Origin: Bacteroidaceae bacterium
GTDB taxonomy: Bacteria; Bacillota; Clostridia; Lachnospirales; Lachnospiraceae
Length of the DNA stretch: 64,000 nt
Direction: 5' to 3'
Assembly (NCBI GenBank): GCA_963597615.1
Contig: CAVBQS010000040.1
Location: forward strand, 7,366 to 71,365
Shown: in pieces, positions 34,854 through 43,677 of the stretch
Layout: each line of letters opens with the position of its first letter
Position numbering within the stretch: the first letter of the stretch is position 1
Position numbers and translations under genes: made by a program
The notes under the pieces: model-generated
Seen by the model: only the letters and a program-made list of their open reading frames with translations
The model's database searches: none
Told to the model about the DNA's origin: nothing

Positions 34854-35037
34854 AAATAGCCCTAAGAAGATTTTCTTCGTATTATAGAGTGTTATAGAAT
34901 AGATGGAGTCCCGGGGGAGTCTTTGTTGACGGTTATGAGGCTTTGTATTATTATGAACATGACTTCTGAAGGACATTTTAAGAAAATTTAAGAAGGAATC
35001 TATCAGTTGTAAAAATAAAACAGGAGGAAATCATCGC

Positions 35038-35727
35038 ATGAAAATTTGTAAAAATTGTGGTGCGTCCATTGCAGATGAGGCAATGTTTTGCACCCAGTGT
35101 GGGGCAAAGTTTGAGGCCTTAAATGAGTCGGTGCAGGAAGAGACATCGGCGACTGAGGCTCTTAAGACGGAAGTGACCACAGAAAATCAACAGCAGTCAG
35201 AGAAAGAGGGCACACAGGGCCAGGCTCCAAATAATGAAGCGGGTGCCTATGCCTATGGCCAACAACAAAATTTTAACCAGGAAAATTATAATCAGCAGAA
35301 TTTTAACCAGCAAAATTATAATCAGGGGGGATATAACCAGGGCCCTTACGGTGGATACCAGCAGTATTATACCCAGACAAATCCTTATGATCACACATCT
35401 GAATTTTCAGCAAAGGATGTATCGGATAATAAGGTCATTGCTATGATGCTATATCTTACCAGCTTCTTAGGAGTTTTTGTGGCCTTGCTTGCGGCTCCGG
35501 ATTCTCCGTATTTGAAGTTCCATGTAAGACAGGCCATTAAATTTATTGTAGTAGATACCTTGGTAGGAATCATTGGAGCAGTCTTGTTCTTCACCTTTAT
35601 TATTCCGGTTTTGGCTGCGATCTTTGTATTCGTAATGTGGATCTGTAAGATTATTACATTCTTCTCAATTTGCGGTGGCAAATCAGTAGAACCAGTGATT
35701 ATCCGTCATTTCGGATTCTTAAGATAA
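35038..35727 (+). CDS. zinc-ribbon / Q,N-rich linker / DUF4870-like membrane protein
   Basis: N-terminal CKNCG...CTQCG zinc ribbon. ~60-aa Q/N/Y-rich low-complexity segment (QQQNFNQENYNQQNFNQQNYNQGGYNQGPYGGYQQYY). The C-terminal 3-TM domain has the HVRQA motif seen in DUF4870-type proteins. Confidence 0.7.
   Translation: MKICKNCGASIADEAMFCTQCGAKFEALNESVQEETSATEALKTEVTTENQQQSEKEGTQGQAPNNEAGAYAYGQQQNFNQENYNQQNFNQQNYNQGGYNQGPYGGYQQYYTQTNPYDHTSEFSAKDVSDNKVIAMMLYLTSFLGVFVALLAAPDSPYLKFHVRQAIKFIVVDTLVGIIGAVLFFTFIIPVLAAIFVFVMWICKIITFFSICGGKSVEPVIIRHFGFLR
35269..35328 (+). repeat. 2 x 30-nt tandem repeat inside the Q/N-rich coding segment
   Basis: AATTTTAACCAGGAAAATTATAATCAGCAG / AATTTTAACCAGCAAAATTATAATCAGGGG, encoding NFNQENYNQQ / NFNQQNYNQG. 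Confidence 0.85.
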
Positions 35728-35742
35728 TTGGGATGATTTTAA

Positions 35743-36732
35743 ATGATTACATTAAATGATTACTTATATTCCGGAGATACGGTGCTTAAGATCTTGCAGC
35801 GTTATTATAAGGATTTAAGCAAAGAAGCCAAGAAAAATCAAAATGAAATCGACCGGATTCATTGTAATTTTCTGCTTCAGATTCAGGAGCTTTTGCAGCA
35901 CAATGACTTCTTAACAGCCCAGTCTCAGAAAATGAGGGAATTTTATAAATATATGGCAAAGGAGTATCCCTTCCTAGCCTTTACCTTCAAAGGAAGGATA
36001 AAATCCCTTATACGGGCCGAGGCCAAATTCAATGGTTACATTGTGGAGTATATCTACAATTACTACAAGGAATATGGAACCTATCCTACAGTGGCAGAGC
36101 TTAAACAGCGCCTTAGTTGCTTTAGGGACCTGGTAGCTTACCGAATTGTAGTGGCCATGCCCAAGTGCCATTTAAAGCCCGGACAGGATATTAAAGAAGA
36201 GGAGCTAAAATACCTCTATGAGATTGCCAATGCCCTGCCGGCCTTTTTGGAAGAACATGGCTTTACAGCGGAGCCTGCAAATGGAGTCTGTGAAAGTGGG
36301 TCCCCTCTTATGGCAGAGGAAGTAAGACCCTATTACAGGGACTATATTTGGAACAATGATAAGGGAGATTACCAGTCTCTACATGTAACTTTTTATGACA
36401 ATAGCTCCAGGTGCTTTACAGAAGTACAGCTTCGCACTAAGGCTATGGATGATACCGCGGAGATTGGAGCTGCCAACCATCTAGGATATGAGAAAGCCCA
36501 GGAAAAAGAGCGGGCCAGAAGAGATGCCATTCCTGTAGGAGCAAGTATATACTTTGATGAAGCCTATGAGAGGGTAAGAAAGATTGCTGCATTGGAACTA
36601 TCTGAACTGGATGTTAATATGTTTGGAGCGGTGAATAATAGTCTGATCAATGATGGATGTGGCTTGTACAGGGGAAGGCTGATCTTGCCATATGAGCATT
36701 TGTCTAGTTTTCAGAATGATTTGATCGATTAA
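35743..36732 (+). CDS. divergent RelA/SpoT-domain (alarmone-synthetase-fold) protein, 329 aa
   Basis: Synthetase-fold motifs in order: G84-RIKS, D129-LVAYRIVV, Y210-QSLH and E227-VQLRT...H246. It has extra ~80-aa N-terminal and ~70-aa C-terminal regions. The usual AMDxWAxxEH block is replaced by AMDDTAEIGAANH. It starts 15 nt after the upstream membrane-protein gene. Confidence 0.7.
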   Translation: MITLNDYLYSGDTVLKILQRYYKDLSKEAKKNQNEIDRIHCNFLLQIQELLQHNDFLTAQSQKMREFYKYMAKEYPFLAFTFKGRIKSLIRAEAKFNGYIVEYIYNYYKEYGTYPTVAELKQRLSCFRDLVAYRIVVAMPKCHLKPGQDIKEEELKYLYEIANALPAFLEEHGFTAEPANGVCESGSPLMAEEVRPYYRDYIWNNDKGDYQSLHVTFYDNSSRCFTEVQLRTKAMDDTAEIGAANHLGYEKAQEKERARRDAIPVGASIYFDEAYERVRKIAALELSELDVNMFGAVNNSLINDGCGLYRGRLILPYEHLSSFQNDLID

Positions 36733-36830
36733 ATGATTAATTAAAGTATATTTAGGTGTGTGCGAAACCGAGAGACTTCCTTTCGTGGATTGGAGGCAAT
36801 ACTCCTTAATTTACATTAATGAAAAAAGGG

Positions 36831-36880
36831 AGAGGGTCTGTGAAAAACTTGCGTTTTTTTCAGGCCCTCTTTGTTGTTTT
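36831..36880. terminator. bidirectional terminator between the two convergent RelA/SpoT-domain genes
   Basis: AGAGGGTCTGTGAAAAAC-TTGC-GTTTTTTTCAGGCCCTCT (15/18 paired). It is flanked by an A-run upstream and TTGTTGTTTT downstream. Confidence 0.75.
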
Positions 36881-36885
36881 GGACT

Positions 36886-37626
36886 TTATTCGAAACTATA
36901 GTCTACGACTTTGTATTTTTCGATTTTGTTTCTTAGTTTTAGCATTCTTGCGTCTAGTTTGGCGATGTCTTCGGCTGCTTTGGCTAGTTCCTCGGCGATT
37001 TTTTCGCAGTCGTCTACGTCTCGTTTGTAGAAGAGCTGATAATCTAGTATGGACCAGTAGTCCATGGCTGTGGTGCGAAATTGGATTTCTACCCGTTCTT
37101 TCTGATAGGATTTCCCGAAGTAGATGGGGATATCGATAATCAGGTGCAGGCTTTTGTATCCGTTTTTCTTGGGGTGCTTTATGTAATCTTTTTCTTTGAT
37201 GACTTCAATATCTCCCTGGGCCTTTAGCTTGCCTGCTACTTCATAGACTTCATCTTCAAAGGGGCATACTACCCGGATTCCGATTAGATCGTTGAGATTT
37301 TTTTGAGCTGTTTCGAAATCGGTAGATAAGTCTTTTCGGACTAATTTGTTGTAAATACTTTCCGGAGTCTTGATCCTGCTGCTTAATTGATTCACAACTG
37401 TGCGGCCTTTTTCCTTAGATAATTCAGCGTCGATCATAGCTAGCTTAGCTAACAAAATATCAATGGCGCACTGACTTTTTAGCTGGTAGCTGGAGTCATA
37501 GACACACTTACTGATCTTGTTAATGGCTTTCTGAGATCCGACAAAATTTTTATAGCGTCGTTTGAATTTTGATTTAACATTAGGTGTTTCCTGCTCTTTG
37601 TTTTTTTCTCTATGTTTCTTGGTCAC
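36886..37626 (-). CDS. small alarmone synthetase (RelP/RelQ-type GTP pyrophosphokinase)
   Basis: SSRIKTPESIYNKL, DLIGIRVVC, GYKSLHLII and VEIQFRTTAMDYWS motifs, about 246 aa. The probable GTG start at 37626 follows GGGAGGGG; the track's TTG start at 37641 lies inside that RBS. Confidence 0.85.
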   Translation of the reverse strand: MTKKHREKNKEQETPNVKSKFKRRYKNFVGSQKAINKISKCVYDSSYQLKSQCAIDILLAKLAMIDAELSKEKGRTVVNQLSSRIKTPESIYNKLVRKDLSTDFETAQKNLNDLIGIRVVCPFEDEVYEVAGKLKAQGDIEVIKEKDYIKHPKKNGYKSLHLIIDIPIYFGKSYQKERVEIQFRTTAMDYWSILDYQLFYKRDVDDCEKIAEELAKAAEDIAKLDARMLKLRNKIEKYKVVDYSFE

Positions 37627-37809
37627 AAAAACCCCTCCCAACTTAAATAAATACCTAGTGCTATTATACTTCTGCTACACTAGACATTACCAGTAAAATT
37701 ATGGTAAATTCTACTTGAGTTATATATGGGTAATTGCCCCCTTGCGCAATCCGGGCTAGATTCTTGAGGGTGCAAATATATATCCTAAATGGAGATAAGG
37801 AGGAGAATC

Positions 37810-38118
37810 ATGGCAGTAGTACATGTAACAAAAGATAATTTCAAGGAAGAGGTTTTGGAAGCTAAGGTGCCGGTGTTGGTGGATTTTTGGGCTACGTGGT
37901 GTGGGCCTTGCCAGATGGTGGCTCCTATTGTGGAGGAGCTTTCTGATGAACTTTCTGATGTGAAGATCTGCAAGGTGGATGTGGATGATCAGCCGGAGCT
38001 TGCAAGAGACTATCGGGTAATGTCCATCCCTATGTTTTATGTGTTTAAAGATGGTGAGGTTGCAAGCCGGGCAGTAGGAGCTCAGGAGAAGGATGAGCTG
38101 ATTGCAATGCTGAAATAA
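37810..38118 (+). CDS. trxA: thioredoxin
   Basis: 102 aa with a WCGPC active site. ATG 37810 lies behind AAGGAGGAG, and the track start adds 7 codons. Confidence 0.92.
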   Translation: MAVVHVTKDNFKEEVLEAKVPVLVDFWATWCGPCQMVAPIVEELSDELSDVKICKVDVDDQPELARDYRVMSIPMFYVFKDGEVASRAVGAQEKDELIAMLK

Positions 38119-41600: not shown

Positions 41601-42140
41601 ATGATTGATGAGGCAAGAGAATTTGCAACAAAGGCACATGAGGGTCAGGTACGCAAAGGAACTCGCAGACCCTACATCGTACATCCAATTGAAGTAGCAG
41701 AGATTGTATCAACTATAACCAAAGACAAGGAAGTCATAAGCGCAGCGTTTTTGCATGATACCATTGAAGATTGCAAGGGTGTTACCAAAGATCTTTTGGC
41801 AGAATGTTTTTCGGGAAGAGTGGCAGACCTTGTAGGCCAGGAAAGTGAGGACAAGACCAAGACCTGGCATGAAAGAAAGGCAGCCACCATAGAACATTTA
41901 AAGAAGGCCCCCAGGGAGGTTCGCATTATTGCCCTGGCAGATAAGTTGTCTAATATGCGGGATATCGACAGAGATTATCCTGTGGTGGGGGAGGATTTGT
42001 GGAACCGCTTTCGTATGAAGGATAAGAATATTATTGGTTGGTATTACAAGGGTGTCAGAGATGTCCTTAAGGAGGAATTTGAGGGGATTCCGGCATTTAA
42101 GGAATACTGTGCACTGATTAAAAAATATTTTGGCGATTAA
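41601..42140 (+). CDS. HD-domain (p)ppGpp hydrolase-like protein (small alarmone hydrolase type)
   Basis: 179 aa. AHEGQVRKGTRRPYIVHPIEVA...AAFLHDTIED...ADKLSN matches the RelA/SpoT hydrolase-domain motif order, with no synthetase domain. Confidence 0.8.
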   Translation: MIDEAREFATKAHEGQVRKGTRRPYIVHPIEVAEIVSTITKDKEVISAAFLHDTIEDCKGVTKDLLAECFSGRVADLVGQESEDKTKTWHERKAATIEHLKKAPREVRIIALADKLSNMRDIDRDYPVVGEDLWNRFRMKDKNIIGWYYKGVRDVLKEEFEGIPAFKEYCALIKKYFGD

Positions 42141-42174
42141 AAAATCCAGTCGCTAAAGAGTTTGGAGTAGTTAA

Positions 42175-42762
42175 ATGGGACGTGGAAAAGGAAAGAAAAA
42201 TGCCAAGCAGAAAATTGTAGAAGCTGCCTGGCAGCTGTTTTATGAAAAAGGATTTAGTGGAACTACCGTAGATGATATTATTGAATTATCCGATACTTCC
42301 AAGGGATCCTTTTATTATTACTTTAATACAAAGGATGAGCTTTTAAATACCCTGTCTATTATGTTGGATGACCAGTATGAGGTTCTAGAGACTCAGATGG
42401 ATCCTAAGATGAACAGTTATGAGAAGCTTTTGTATTTAAACCGGGAAATTCACAAGTGGATGGAAGAGAATGTTCATATTGAACTTCTAACTTCTTTGTA
42501 TTCCACTCAGTTGGCGGCCAGTGGGAAAAGTTGCCTTTTAAATCACAATCGGGTATATTTTCGCCTGATTACCAAGATTGTAGATGAGGGGCAACTTAGG
42601 GGCCAGATTAGGCAGGATGCTTCGGTTATGGAGATTGTAAAATACTATGCCATGTGCGAGAGGGCTCTGGTGTCTGACTGGTGTTTAAGTCGTGGAGAGT
42701 TTTCCCTGGCAGATTGTAATACAAAATATATGGCCTATATGATGGAACACTATAGGGCTTAA
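42175..42762 (+). CDS. TetR/AcrR family transcriptional regulator
   Basis: 195 aa with an N-terminal TetR HTH (FYEKGFSGTTVDDIIELSDTSKGSFYYYFNTKDELL). Confidence 0.85.
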   Translation: MGRGKGKKNAKQKIVEAAWQLFYEKGFSGTTVDDIIELSDTSKGSFYYYFNTKDELLNTLSIMLDDQYEVLETQMDPKMNSYEKLLYLNREIHKWMEENVHIELLTSLYSTQLAASGKSCLLNHNRVYFRLITKIVDEGQLRGQIRQDASVMEIVKYYAMCERALVSDWCLSRGEFSLADCNTKYMAYMMEHYRA

Positions 42763-42777
42763 GAGAGGAAAAATAAA

Positions 42778-43677
42778 ATGTATGACATTGGGATTGTAGG
42801 AGGGGGCATTGCCGGAATGACAGCCGCCATCTATGGCCTGCGGGCCGGAAAGAAAGTGTTGCTTTTAGAAGGTACTGGCTTTGGGGGGCAGATGACCTTA
42901 ACTTCCCATATAGAAAATTATCCGGGAATTCAAAAAATTTCAGGAAATGAACTAGCCCAGAATTTAAAAGCCCAAGTGGAAGAATTGGGGGTCGAGATCA
43001 AGCGGGCAAGTGTAAAAGAAATTCTAGTTCAAGATCAAGAAAAAATCATCATAACAGAGCAGGAAGAATTTCCATGCAAGGCCCTGATTCTTGCTACAGG
43101 ACAGACCCACAGAAAATTAGGAGTTCCAGGAGAAGACCAATTTGCAGGCATGGGAGTATCCTACTGTGCAGTCTGCGATGGGGCCTTCTTTAAAGGCATG
43201 AATGTGGCAGTGGTGGGAGGAGGAAGTACCGCCCTAGAAGATGTGGCCTATCTGGCTAACCACTGTAACAAAGTCTATGTAATTCACCGAAGAGATGCCT
43301 TTCGAGGGGAAGACTATCTGGTGCAAAACCTAAAAGAAAAGGAAAATGTAGAGTTCATCCTAAACAGCATAGTAACAGAAATCAAGGGAAGTTTTGCAGT
43401 AGAAGAAATAAAGCTTCGTAATGTTCTTACCAAAGCAGAATCAAACCTTCCAGTAGAAGGAGTCTTCATAGCCATCGGCCAAATCCCCGGAAACGAAAGA
43501 TACGCCGGCCTAGTAGACCTAGATGAAAAAGGATATATAAAAGCAGGAGAAGATTGCAAGACCTCCAGAGAAGGAATCTTTGCAGCAGGAGATTGCAGAA
43601 CAAAAGCCGTAAGACAGCTAGTGACAGCAGCCGCAGATGGAGCCATAGCAGCCCTAGGGGCCACGGAAATATGCTAA
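42778..43677 (+). CDS. trxB: thioredoxin-disulfide reductase
   Basis: 299 aa with GGGIAG FAD site, redox-active CAVCDG, GGGSTA NADPH site and C-terminal AAGD. Confidence 0.9.
   Translation: MYDIGIVGGGIAGMTAAIYGLRAGKKVLLLEGTGFGGQMTLTSHIENYPGIQKISGNELAQNLKAQVEELGVEIKRASVKEILVQDQEKIIITEQEEFPCKALILATGQTHRKLGVPGEDQFAGMGVSYCAVCDGAFFKGMNVAVVGGGSTALEDVAYLANHCNKVYVIHRRDAFRGEDYLVQNLKEKENVEFILNSIVTEIKGSFAVEEIKLRNVLTKAESNLPVEGVFIAIGQIPGNERYAGLVDLDEKGYIKAGEDCKTSREGIFAAGDCRTKAVRQLVTAAADGAIAALGATEIC

Follow-up and report, generated by a model that had tools for sequence, protein, structure and literature searches.

Our analysis identifies the gene at positions 35743 to 36732 on the + strand of a 64-kb window as one that encodes a 329-aa protein of the RelA/SpoT homologue (RSH) superfamily, which, as modelled, has the nucleotidyltransferase-like alpha/beta synthetase fold. 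By the window we mean the whole stretch of DNA that was analysed, 64,000 nucleotides of a Blautia-like Lachnospiraceae chromosome of about 42% G+C and even composition across the region. On balance, we favour the view that the protein represents an uncharacterised subfamily of orphan small alarmone synthetases (SAS), confined to the Lachnospiraceae and related Clostridia, and that it acts without a partner and most likely makes a (pp)pGpp-type product. The enzyme is an unstudied RSH member, and the new details are the variability of its acceptor G-loop set against a near-invariant C-terminal tail. Blautia and related Lachnospiraceae, which are among the most abundant human-gut bacteria, carry this family in addition to Rel and a RelP/Q-type enzyme, as a third synthetase of the RSH type. 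To know what it makes would round off the alarmone inventory of these bacteria and would clarify the role of the extensions and of the remodelled loop.

The 329-aa open reading frame (ORF) has an ATG start, and its product matches the Pfam family RelA_SpoT (PF04607) over residues 198-253 with 44.8 bits, against a gathering cutoff of 27. The ordered RSH catalytic motifs are all present, namely those for the ATP phosphates and Mg, the G-loop Tyr, E-x-Q-x-R-T and H-x2-Y-x-K; in the window's protein the motifs stand at G84-R85-I86-K87-S88, D129, Y133-RIVV, Y210-QSLH, E227-VQLRT and A234-MDDTAEIGAANH246. An earlier sequence-only reading of this DNA had given the same ORF and motif positions, which the ORF list and the family alignment bear out, and had described a divergent stand-alone protein of the RelA/SpoT-synthetase fold with N- and C-terminal extensions, a description with which the PF04607 match, the alignment and the structural model all agree. 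It had also described the helix in the place of the AMDxWA motif, AEIGAANHLGYEK, as lacking the Trp and containing an insertion. The Trp is indeed absent, with Leu in its stead, but the insertion disappears on comparison with long enzymes, since AEIGAANHLGYEK can be aligned gap-free with AEYGVAAHWAYKK, its counterpart in the long-RSH enzyme RelSeq (1VJ7), and only the Trp is replaced, by Leu. Judged by this alignment, the motif-5 helix is of the long-RSH type and not of the AMDxWA type.

Three regions follow one another along the protein, all encoded on the + strand. The N-terminal extension (residues 1-76; 35743-35970) consists of three predicted helices at residues 14-32, 35-52 and 55-74 that would lie on the core. 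The synthetase (SYNTH) core (residues 77-260; 35971-36522) holds GRIKSxxRxxxK, D129-xxAYR, YYRDY...Y210QSLH, E227-xQLRT and AEIGxANHxxYEK, and is interrupted by two family-specific insertions at about residues 101-126 and 141-196. Within it, the variable part of the acceptor G-loop (residues 203-209, WNNDKGD; 36349-36369) replaces the canonical P-K-x-N-G. The C-terminal extension (residues 261-329; 36523-36729) begins with a predicted helix at 269-282 and continues into the tail NDGCGLYRGRLILPYEHLS (303-321). No Pfam domain was found in either extension, residues 254-329 included, at E-values up to 10.

The affinities of the protein lie with Rel, RelP and RelQ, both in sequence and in predicted structure. 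A profile of the family compared with the PDB sequences ranked the long Rel 1VJ7 first (E 1e-11), before RelP 6EWZ (about 9e-9) and RelQ 5DEC (about 4e-6); the toxic enzyme FaRel2 was marginal (E 0.03), and CapRel and Tas1 were not retrieved. The Rel synthetase domain was also the best match of a search with the single sequence (E 1e-4). An AlphaFold2 (AF2) model calculated from a 12-sequence family alignment, which replaced a single-sequence AF2 model with a predicted local distance difference test score (pLDDT) of 39, reached a pLDDT of 78.9 and a predicted TM-score (pTM) of 0.77, and placed three N-terminal helices packed on the synthetase core. The pLDDT is 83-94 in the N-terminal extension and falls below 50 at residues 294-329, where the tail is of low confidence. 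Foldseek put RelQ 5DEC, RelP 6EX0 and Rel N-terminal domains at the top (E 4e-6 to 5e-4), and all of the 29 PDB matches at E <= 1e-3 are RSH synthetase domains of RelQ, RelP or Rel. The exported synthetase 8VX3 was weaker (E 1.4e-3), as was FaRel2 (0.057), and CapRel was absent.

The housekeeping SAS enzymes RelQ and RelP are about 210-230 aa long, have a motif 5 of the AMDxWAxxEH type, form homotetramers, with or without allosteric pppGpp, and make (pp)pGpp. With RelQ (SAS1/YjbM) and RelP (SAS2/YwaC; structures 5DEC, 5DED, 6EWZ, 6EX0 and 6FGK) the 329-aa protein has in common a synthetase domain alone, with no hydrolase, TGS or ACT domain, the same ordered catalytic motifs, the best Foldseek matches (E 4e-6 to 5e-5) and a chromosomal gene without a partner. 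It differs from them in being about 100 aa longer, in its 76-aa helical N-terminal and 70-aa C-terminal extensions, which are found only in its own family, in the two core insertions and in the long-RSH type of its motif 5; P-K-x-N-G is lost in the Blautia clade, identity is 15-19%, and the YjbM equivalog cutoff is missed. The NCBIfam models spoT_relA and YjbM both remain below threshold on this protein, the GTPPhKinYjbM model giving 12.9 bits against a cutoff of 320. The long Rel enzymes (RelSeq 1VJ7, B. subtilis Rel 6YXA/8ACU and S. aureus Rel 7OIW) are the best sequence matches, with a gap-free correspondence over 'KDYI...YQSLH...EIQLRT...AEIGxAxHxxYxK', but they have an HD hydrolase domain and a TGS, AH, RIS, ACT region that the 329-aa protein lacks.

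A further candidate relative, compared by taxon lists alone, is cloRel, a Clostridia-restricted SAS subgroup that resembles the present family in its SAS-only architecture and its Firmicutes/Clostridia range. In the lists of Atkinson et al. (2011; PMC3153485), cloRel is given for C. difficile, C. perfringens, C. tetani and Finegoldia, whereas Lachnospiraceae genomes do not figure in those lists. We found no use of the name cloRel in the literature after that paper and the subgroup is uncharacterised; the main text of Jimmy et al. (2020; PMC7229694) names groups of toxic SAS (toxSAS) only. The sequence-only reading had held that sequence alone does not settle the class of the protein, and our comparisons support it: the 329-aa protein fits none of the characterised classes, and its substrate is not fixed by its sequence.

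The family is large and its architecture is constant. A word-indexed search returned 3018 homologues, of which the named ones come from Blautia and 'Ruminococcus' species; their NCBI label, 'guanosine polyphosphate pyrophosphohydrolase', is wrong for a synthetase-only protein. An exhaustive HMMER scan over 1.8 billion cluster representatives (E up to 1e-3) gave 457 matches, including about a dozen full-length clusters of 320-353 aa with 31-72% identity. These align end to end with the 329-aa synthetase, and the N- and C-terminal extensions therefore belong to the family. Relatives are encoded in at least 486 GTDB species genomes; the 80 with the best matches are Blautia and other Lachnospiraceae, and it is to these 80 species-representative genomes that our neighbourhood counts refer. 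In the full-length family alignment G84, R85, K87, R91, K95, D129, Y201, E227, Q229, H246, Y249 and E250 are invariant down to 31% identity, while A132, R134, Y210 and H214 are kept in at least 90% of members over the same range. In FaRel2, ATP is bound by R64, K66, S70 and K74, and Mg by D90 (PMC11782079). The R-x-K-x3-R-x3-K pattern of the family corresponds to the former residues and D129 to the latter, and the invariant positions as a whole correspond to the ATP-phosphate, Mg and catalytic positions that the same study gives for FaRel2 and other RSH enzymes. By this correspondence, the donor ATP site and the catalytic residues are conserved in the family.

Two deep members depart from this pattern. 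P0183 (locus L095, 5001-6050) and P0441 (L098, 4001-5020), which are 38% identical to each other and both lie between murA and smc, have Phe in place of the stacking Tyr and have lost both the SLH motif and the RT of ExQxRT, and they may represent a catalytically degenerate lineage of the family.

Selection on the gene was estimated from parsimony substitution counts on a tree of 84 distinct Blautia-clade genes, a crude measure with saturated synonymous sites, so that all omega values are approximate. Omega is about 0.09 for the whole gene and about 0.01-0.07 for the catalytic motifs; it is 0.03 for residues 1-12 and 51-80, 0.15-0.16 for the core insertions, 0.02 for the C-terminal tail (300-329) and 0.33 for G-loop residues 203-209. 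The synthetase gene has long been resident in the chromosome and is subject to strong purifying selection. The tail NDGCGLYRGRLILPYEHLS has a conservation of 0.93-0.98 in the Blautia clade. Residues 203-209, at the other extreme, are the most variable segment among the 84 genes (block 201-210 has a mean conservation of 0.56), with WNNDKGD in the window and CGTSEYG, CNNSEDD or SEKKDSD elsewhere, often acidic. We considered positive selection on the G-loop and rejected it, an omega of 0.33 being a sign of relaxed constraint and not of diversifying selection.

The loss of the canonical G-loop bears directly on the question of the product. The P-K-x-N-G segment of canonical enzymes binds the 5'-phosphates of GDP or GTP. 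P-K-x-(N)-G precedes the stacking Tyr in canonical enzymes and in the RelP/Q-type protein encoded next to the synthetase, and the deeper members of the family have P-K-x-x-G-Y. Since this segment is lost in the Blautia clade, GTP or GDP as acceptor is an assumption, and the acceptor substrate is uncertain. The default product nevertheless is (pp)pGpp, because of the closest relatives of the family and the canonical loop of its deeper members. In the mechanism that we propose from the conserved residues, ATP-Mg would be held via R85, K87, R91, K95, D129, R134 and E227, and its beta-gamma pyrophosphate would pass to a purine nucleotide that stacks on Y210, at the 3'-OH; this acceptor would most likely be GTP, GDP or GMP, and the product (pp)pGpp. 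Activity would be set by the N-terminal helical bundle and the invariant C-terminal tail, through oligomerisation, autoinhibition or ligand binding, with no need for a separate antitoxin.

It is possible, though we consider it rather doubtful, that the enzyme serves a housekeeping role without toxicity and physiologically makes, in place of (p)ppGpp, pGpp only, (p)ppApp or another 3'-pyrophosphorylated nucleotide, and thus provides a third, chemically distinct signal beside those of Rel and the RelP/Q-type enzyme. This genome is already provided with a canonical RelP/Q-type SAS, 150 nt from the synthetase gene, and with a small alarmone hydrolase (SAH), 4.9 kb from it, and in the Blautia clade the G-loop segment has been lost while the stacking Tyr and the donor-site residues are invariant. 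However, the retention of P-K-x-x-G-Y by the deeper members indicates that the ancestral enzyme probably used a guanine di- or triphosphate as acceptor, and we know of no sequence rule that assigns the acceptor. We think it unlikely that the Blautia-clade enzyme has switched to an acceptor that carries no 5'-polyphosphate, for example GMP, AMP, a nucleoside or the 3' end of an RNA, which it would pyrophosphorylate under the control of its own tail. This idea is prompted by the contrast between a P-K-x-N-G segment that has been lost and drifts and a stacking Tyr, ATP site and tail that are strongly selected. If it were true, this would be a housekeeping enzyme without a partner that is related to the tRNA-modifying toxSAS, or else one that supplies abundant human-gut commensals with a new 3'-pyrophosphorylated signal.

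Several points weigh against a partner-less synthetase of (pp)pGpp. Identity to solved structures is 15-20% and the TM-scores are modest, about 0.5 on the target. The PF04607 match takes in just the C-terminal half of the Pfam model; in its N-terminal half, the synthetase core has diverged too far for alignment to the hidden Markov model (HMM). The acceptor loop of the Blautia clade, variable and often acidic, is without the Pro-Lys...Asn-Gly of canonical (p)ppGpp synthetases, and a reduced positive patch beside the stacking Tyr has been linked to tRNA-targeting toxSAS (PMC11782079). Finally, even without a conserved neighbour, the protein could be toxic and restrained in cis by its own extensions.

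The genetic surroundings of the synthetase argue strongly against a dedicated partner. In the window, the gene is preceded on the + strand, after an intergenic gap of 15 nt, by a gene (35038-35727) whose product combines a Zn ribbon (PF13240, 34.4 bits; CxxC...CxxC at C4/C7/C18/C21), a Q,N-rich linker (residues 41-125, 59% Q/N/G/Y) and a DUF4870-type region with three putative transmembrane (TM) segments, for which there are a weak DUF4870 match and compatible hydrophobic stretches at residues 131-155 and 165-215. A site scan found no promoter-like or terminator-like site in the 15-nt gap. The sole + strand promoter candidate ahead of the two genes is TTGACG-17-TATTAT at 34926-34954, a pattern match alone (consensus scan, 10/12 matches). 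From this arrangement, the two genes probably share a transcript in the window's clade. In sequencing-run data, no RNA run contained this stretch, and one DNA run contained 5% of the sampled words.

The sequence-only reading had raised the Zn-ribbon membrane protein as a functional or neutralising partner. On that view the two genes would encode a toxin with its antitoxin, or an enzyme with its regulator, and the synthetase would be neutralised, anchored or activated by the Zn-ribbon/DUF4870 protein; the short gap free of recognisable sites speaks for such a pair, as does its maintenance at 14-15 nt in the three closest species genomes (loci L010-L012), but we regard it as highly improbable. 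Contigs with an identical synthetase keep the order trpA, Zn-ribbon gene, synthetase and convergent RelP/Q gene, and the Zn-ribbon gene lies upstream of the synthetase solely in loci L004-L006 and L010-L012. A Zn-ribbon homologue occurs within 5 kb of the synthetase in only 3 of the 80 species genomes, again L010-L012, where the synthetase is at least 91% identical, and is absent in the other 77. In these three, the Zn-ribbon protein is 68-82% identical compared with 91-94% for the synthetase, the Zn-ribbon gene thus diverging much faster, and the synthetase is equally conserved with or without this neighbour. Zn-ribbon/DUF4870 homologues (43-50% identity) are found elsewhere beside a glycosidase gene and an operon for an ABC transporter under a helix-turn-helix (HTH) regulator, or in a ribosomal-protein cluster, with no synthetase nearby. 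When the conservation of the two-gene pairing was checked in other genomes, it was thus not borne out, and the hypothesis of a synthetase with a Zn-ribbon partner is refuted by comparative genomics. As the pair is limited to the window's clade and missing from 77 of 80 genomes, the adjacency is, on the evidence of gene order, a young, clade-specific juxtaposition. The association of a synthetase with a membrane Zn-ribbon protein is a clade-specific accident of gene order and not a new type of toxin partner; the Zn-ribbon gene would be a recent lineage-specific neighbour that the enzyme does not need.

No other gene takes its place. Clustering of three genes on each side at 88 loci revealed no conserved neighbour of the synthetase, its flanks falling into dozens of unrelated families. 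Orthologues of 78% identity have a divergent Mrr-like gene on one side and a convergent ilvN on the other, those of 76% identity an esterase gene and a MatE gene. Six deep members (31-41% identity) are monocistronic between divergent or convergent housekeeping genes, their surroundings being murA and smc, an alaS-type tRNA-synthetase gene (PF01411) with ribosomal-protein genes, or peptidase genes. A RelP/Q gene is found within 5 kb of the synthetase solely in the window's clade and at L018, and an HD hydrolase gene near it solely at loci of the window's clade (L004, L012); neither is a conserved neighbour. MatE paralogues, DUF2798, a purine-nucleoside-phosphorylase-like gene, a secreted esterase and an alanine symporter were examined as alternative partners and rejected, each being present at a minority of loci and in differing positions.

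Two of these neighbours deserve mention in their own right. At 24 of 85 loci a MatE-family transporter gene stands no more than three genes from the synthetase, in at least 10 arrangements and as paralogues that are 23-39% identical to one another, which may reflect either a real linkage or just the abundance of MatE in Lachnospiraceae. The purine-nucleoside-phosphorylase-like gene (270-286 aa, named by reading its sequence) stands directly upstream of the synthetase on the same strand in six species, with a gap of 35-43 nt (L015, L016, L017, L020, L026 and L038), and could hint at a purine-metabolism context for the synthetase.

The same surroundings separate the family from the toxSAS modules of Jimmy et al. 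(PMC7229694), whose two- or three-gene arrangement, with the antitoxin gene next to that of the toxin, is conserved in disparate lineages; their toxicity on expression depends on the active site and is neutralised by the partner. Here, the Zn-ribbon gene is present in 3 of 80 genomes, no other neighbour is conserved and the six deep members are monocistronic. The 329-aa protein resembles the toxSAS (FaRel, FaRel2 with structures 8PU1-8PU4, PhRel, PhRel2 and CapRel-SJ46; PMC7229694, PMC11782079, PMC9712102) in its stand-alone RelA/SpoT synthetase fold and, in the Blautia clade, in a G-loop with fewer basic residues; it shares with FaRel2 a flexible C-terminal region. It differs from them in the lack of a conserved bicistronic or tricistronic arrangement and of a PADLOC match, in the marginal character of its similarity to FaRel2 in both profile and fold, in its housekeeping or metabolic flanks and in the strong purifying selection on the family. 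Searches of the 329-aa protein against PADLOC and PHROGs gave no meaningful match.

A toxin that carries its own antitoxin would need no neighbour. In CapRel-SJ46, which defence-system models recognise, a C-terminal pseudo-Zn-finger domain acts as antitoxin and sensor, with a YXXY motif and a variable sensor surface. The 329-aa protein could be a self-contained, fused toxSAS-like enzyme of this kind, whose core pyrophosphorylates tRNA CCA ends or ATP and arrests growth, and whose tail holds it off until a trigger such as a phage protein appears. The gene is monocistronic everywhere, the C-terminal extension of about 70 aa ends in an invariant tail that is predicted to be flexible, and the Blautia-clade G-loop, often acidic and without a conserved Lys, recalls the smaller positive patch of FaRel2 (PMC11782079). 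However, this reading is unlikely, because the tail is near-invariant (its omega of 0.02 is the opposite of that of an arms-race sensor), no PADLOC defence model matches, and the flanks that were examined are housekeeping or metabolic, although no scan of the flanks was aimed at defence systems. In addition, neither a pseudo-Zn-finger (Cys/His pattern) nor YXXY was seen by eye in the tail, whose extension, like the N-terminal one, is without a Pfam domain. In profile and fold the protein is far closer to Rel, RelP and RelQ than to FaRel2, CapRel being absent among the PDB matches and Tas1 not retrieved, and a single conserved gene is found in at least 486 species genomes.

Nor does the family look exported or mobile. 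Exported or secreted alarmone synthetases, namely Tas1/Apk1 and the EAS of PMC12691689, are marked by a signal peptide, by an LXG domain or another one for delivery through a secretion system, and by an immunity gene beside their own. The 329-aa protein has no N-terminal hydrophobic segment (maximum 19-residue hydropathy 0.94) and no conserved neighbour, and 8VX3 is a weaker structural match to it than RelQ or RelP. A plasmid search gave no match to the synthetase. Phage carriage was suggested by two INPHARED 'Bacteriophage sp.' matches and rejected, these being unannotated human-faecal virome scaffolds, of which the one examined holds bacterial genes. This scaffold, MT835872.1 (L103, 16 kb, flagged UNVERIFIED), carries sbcCD, degV, ftsX, HAD and GGDEF genes together with the synthetase gene but no hallmark gene of a phage, and is thus bacterial DNA that was filed among phages.

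Downstream of the synthetase in the window lies a convergent canonical RelP/RelQ-type SAS gene (36886-37641, - strand; PF04607 104.8 bits, NCBIfam YjbM 131 bits), about 150 nt away. The two genes have in common a bidirectional intrinsic-terminator hairpin at 36822-36880, made of an A-tract, a 12-bp G+C-rich stem and a U-tract, which a simple terminator scan missed; the 153-nt RNA of 36733-36885 folds with -48.7 kcal/mol (z = -3.99). A stand-alone HD_4 SAH is encoded 4.87 kb downstream of the synthetase (41601-42140, + strand; PF13328 73.8 bits). The sequence-only reading was accurate on all of these surroundings, namely the Zn-ribbon/3-TM gene upstream, the 15-nt gap, the convergent RelP/Q-type SAS and the HD hydrolase about 4.9 kb away. 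The RelP/Q-type SAS (36886-37641) also matches the PADLOC candidate-system model PDC-S33 with 83.5 bits, which is probably due to mere shared synthetase-domain similarity. According to the ORF list, its gene is divergent from trxA (region 37627-38118), and the HD hydrolase gene is followed by a TetR gene and trxB (41601-43677). Lastly, Blautia-type contigs with a synthetase of 73-94% identity occur inside metagenome-assembled genome (MAG) records titled Parabacteroides distasonis, Prevotella, Holdemanella, Eggerthellaceae and Paludibacteraceae (L010, L016, L024, L032, L038 and L084), which are likely to be errors of binning or labelling.

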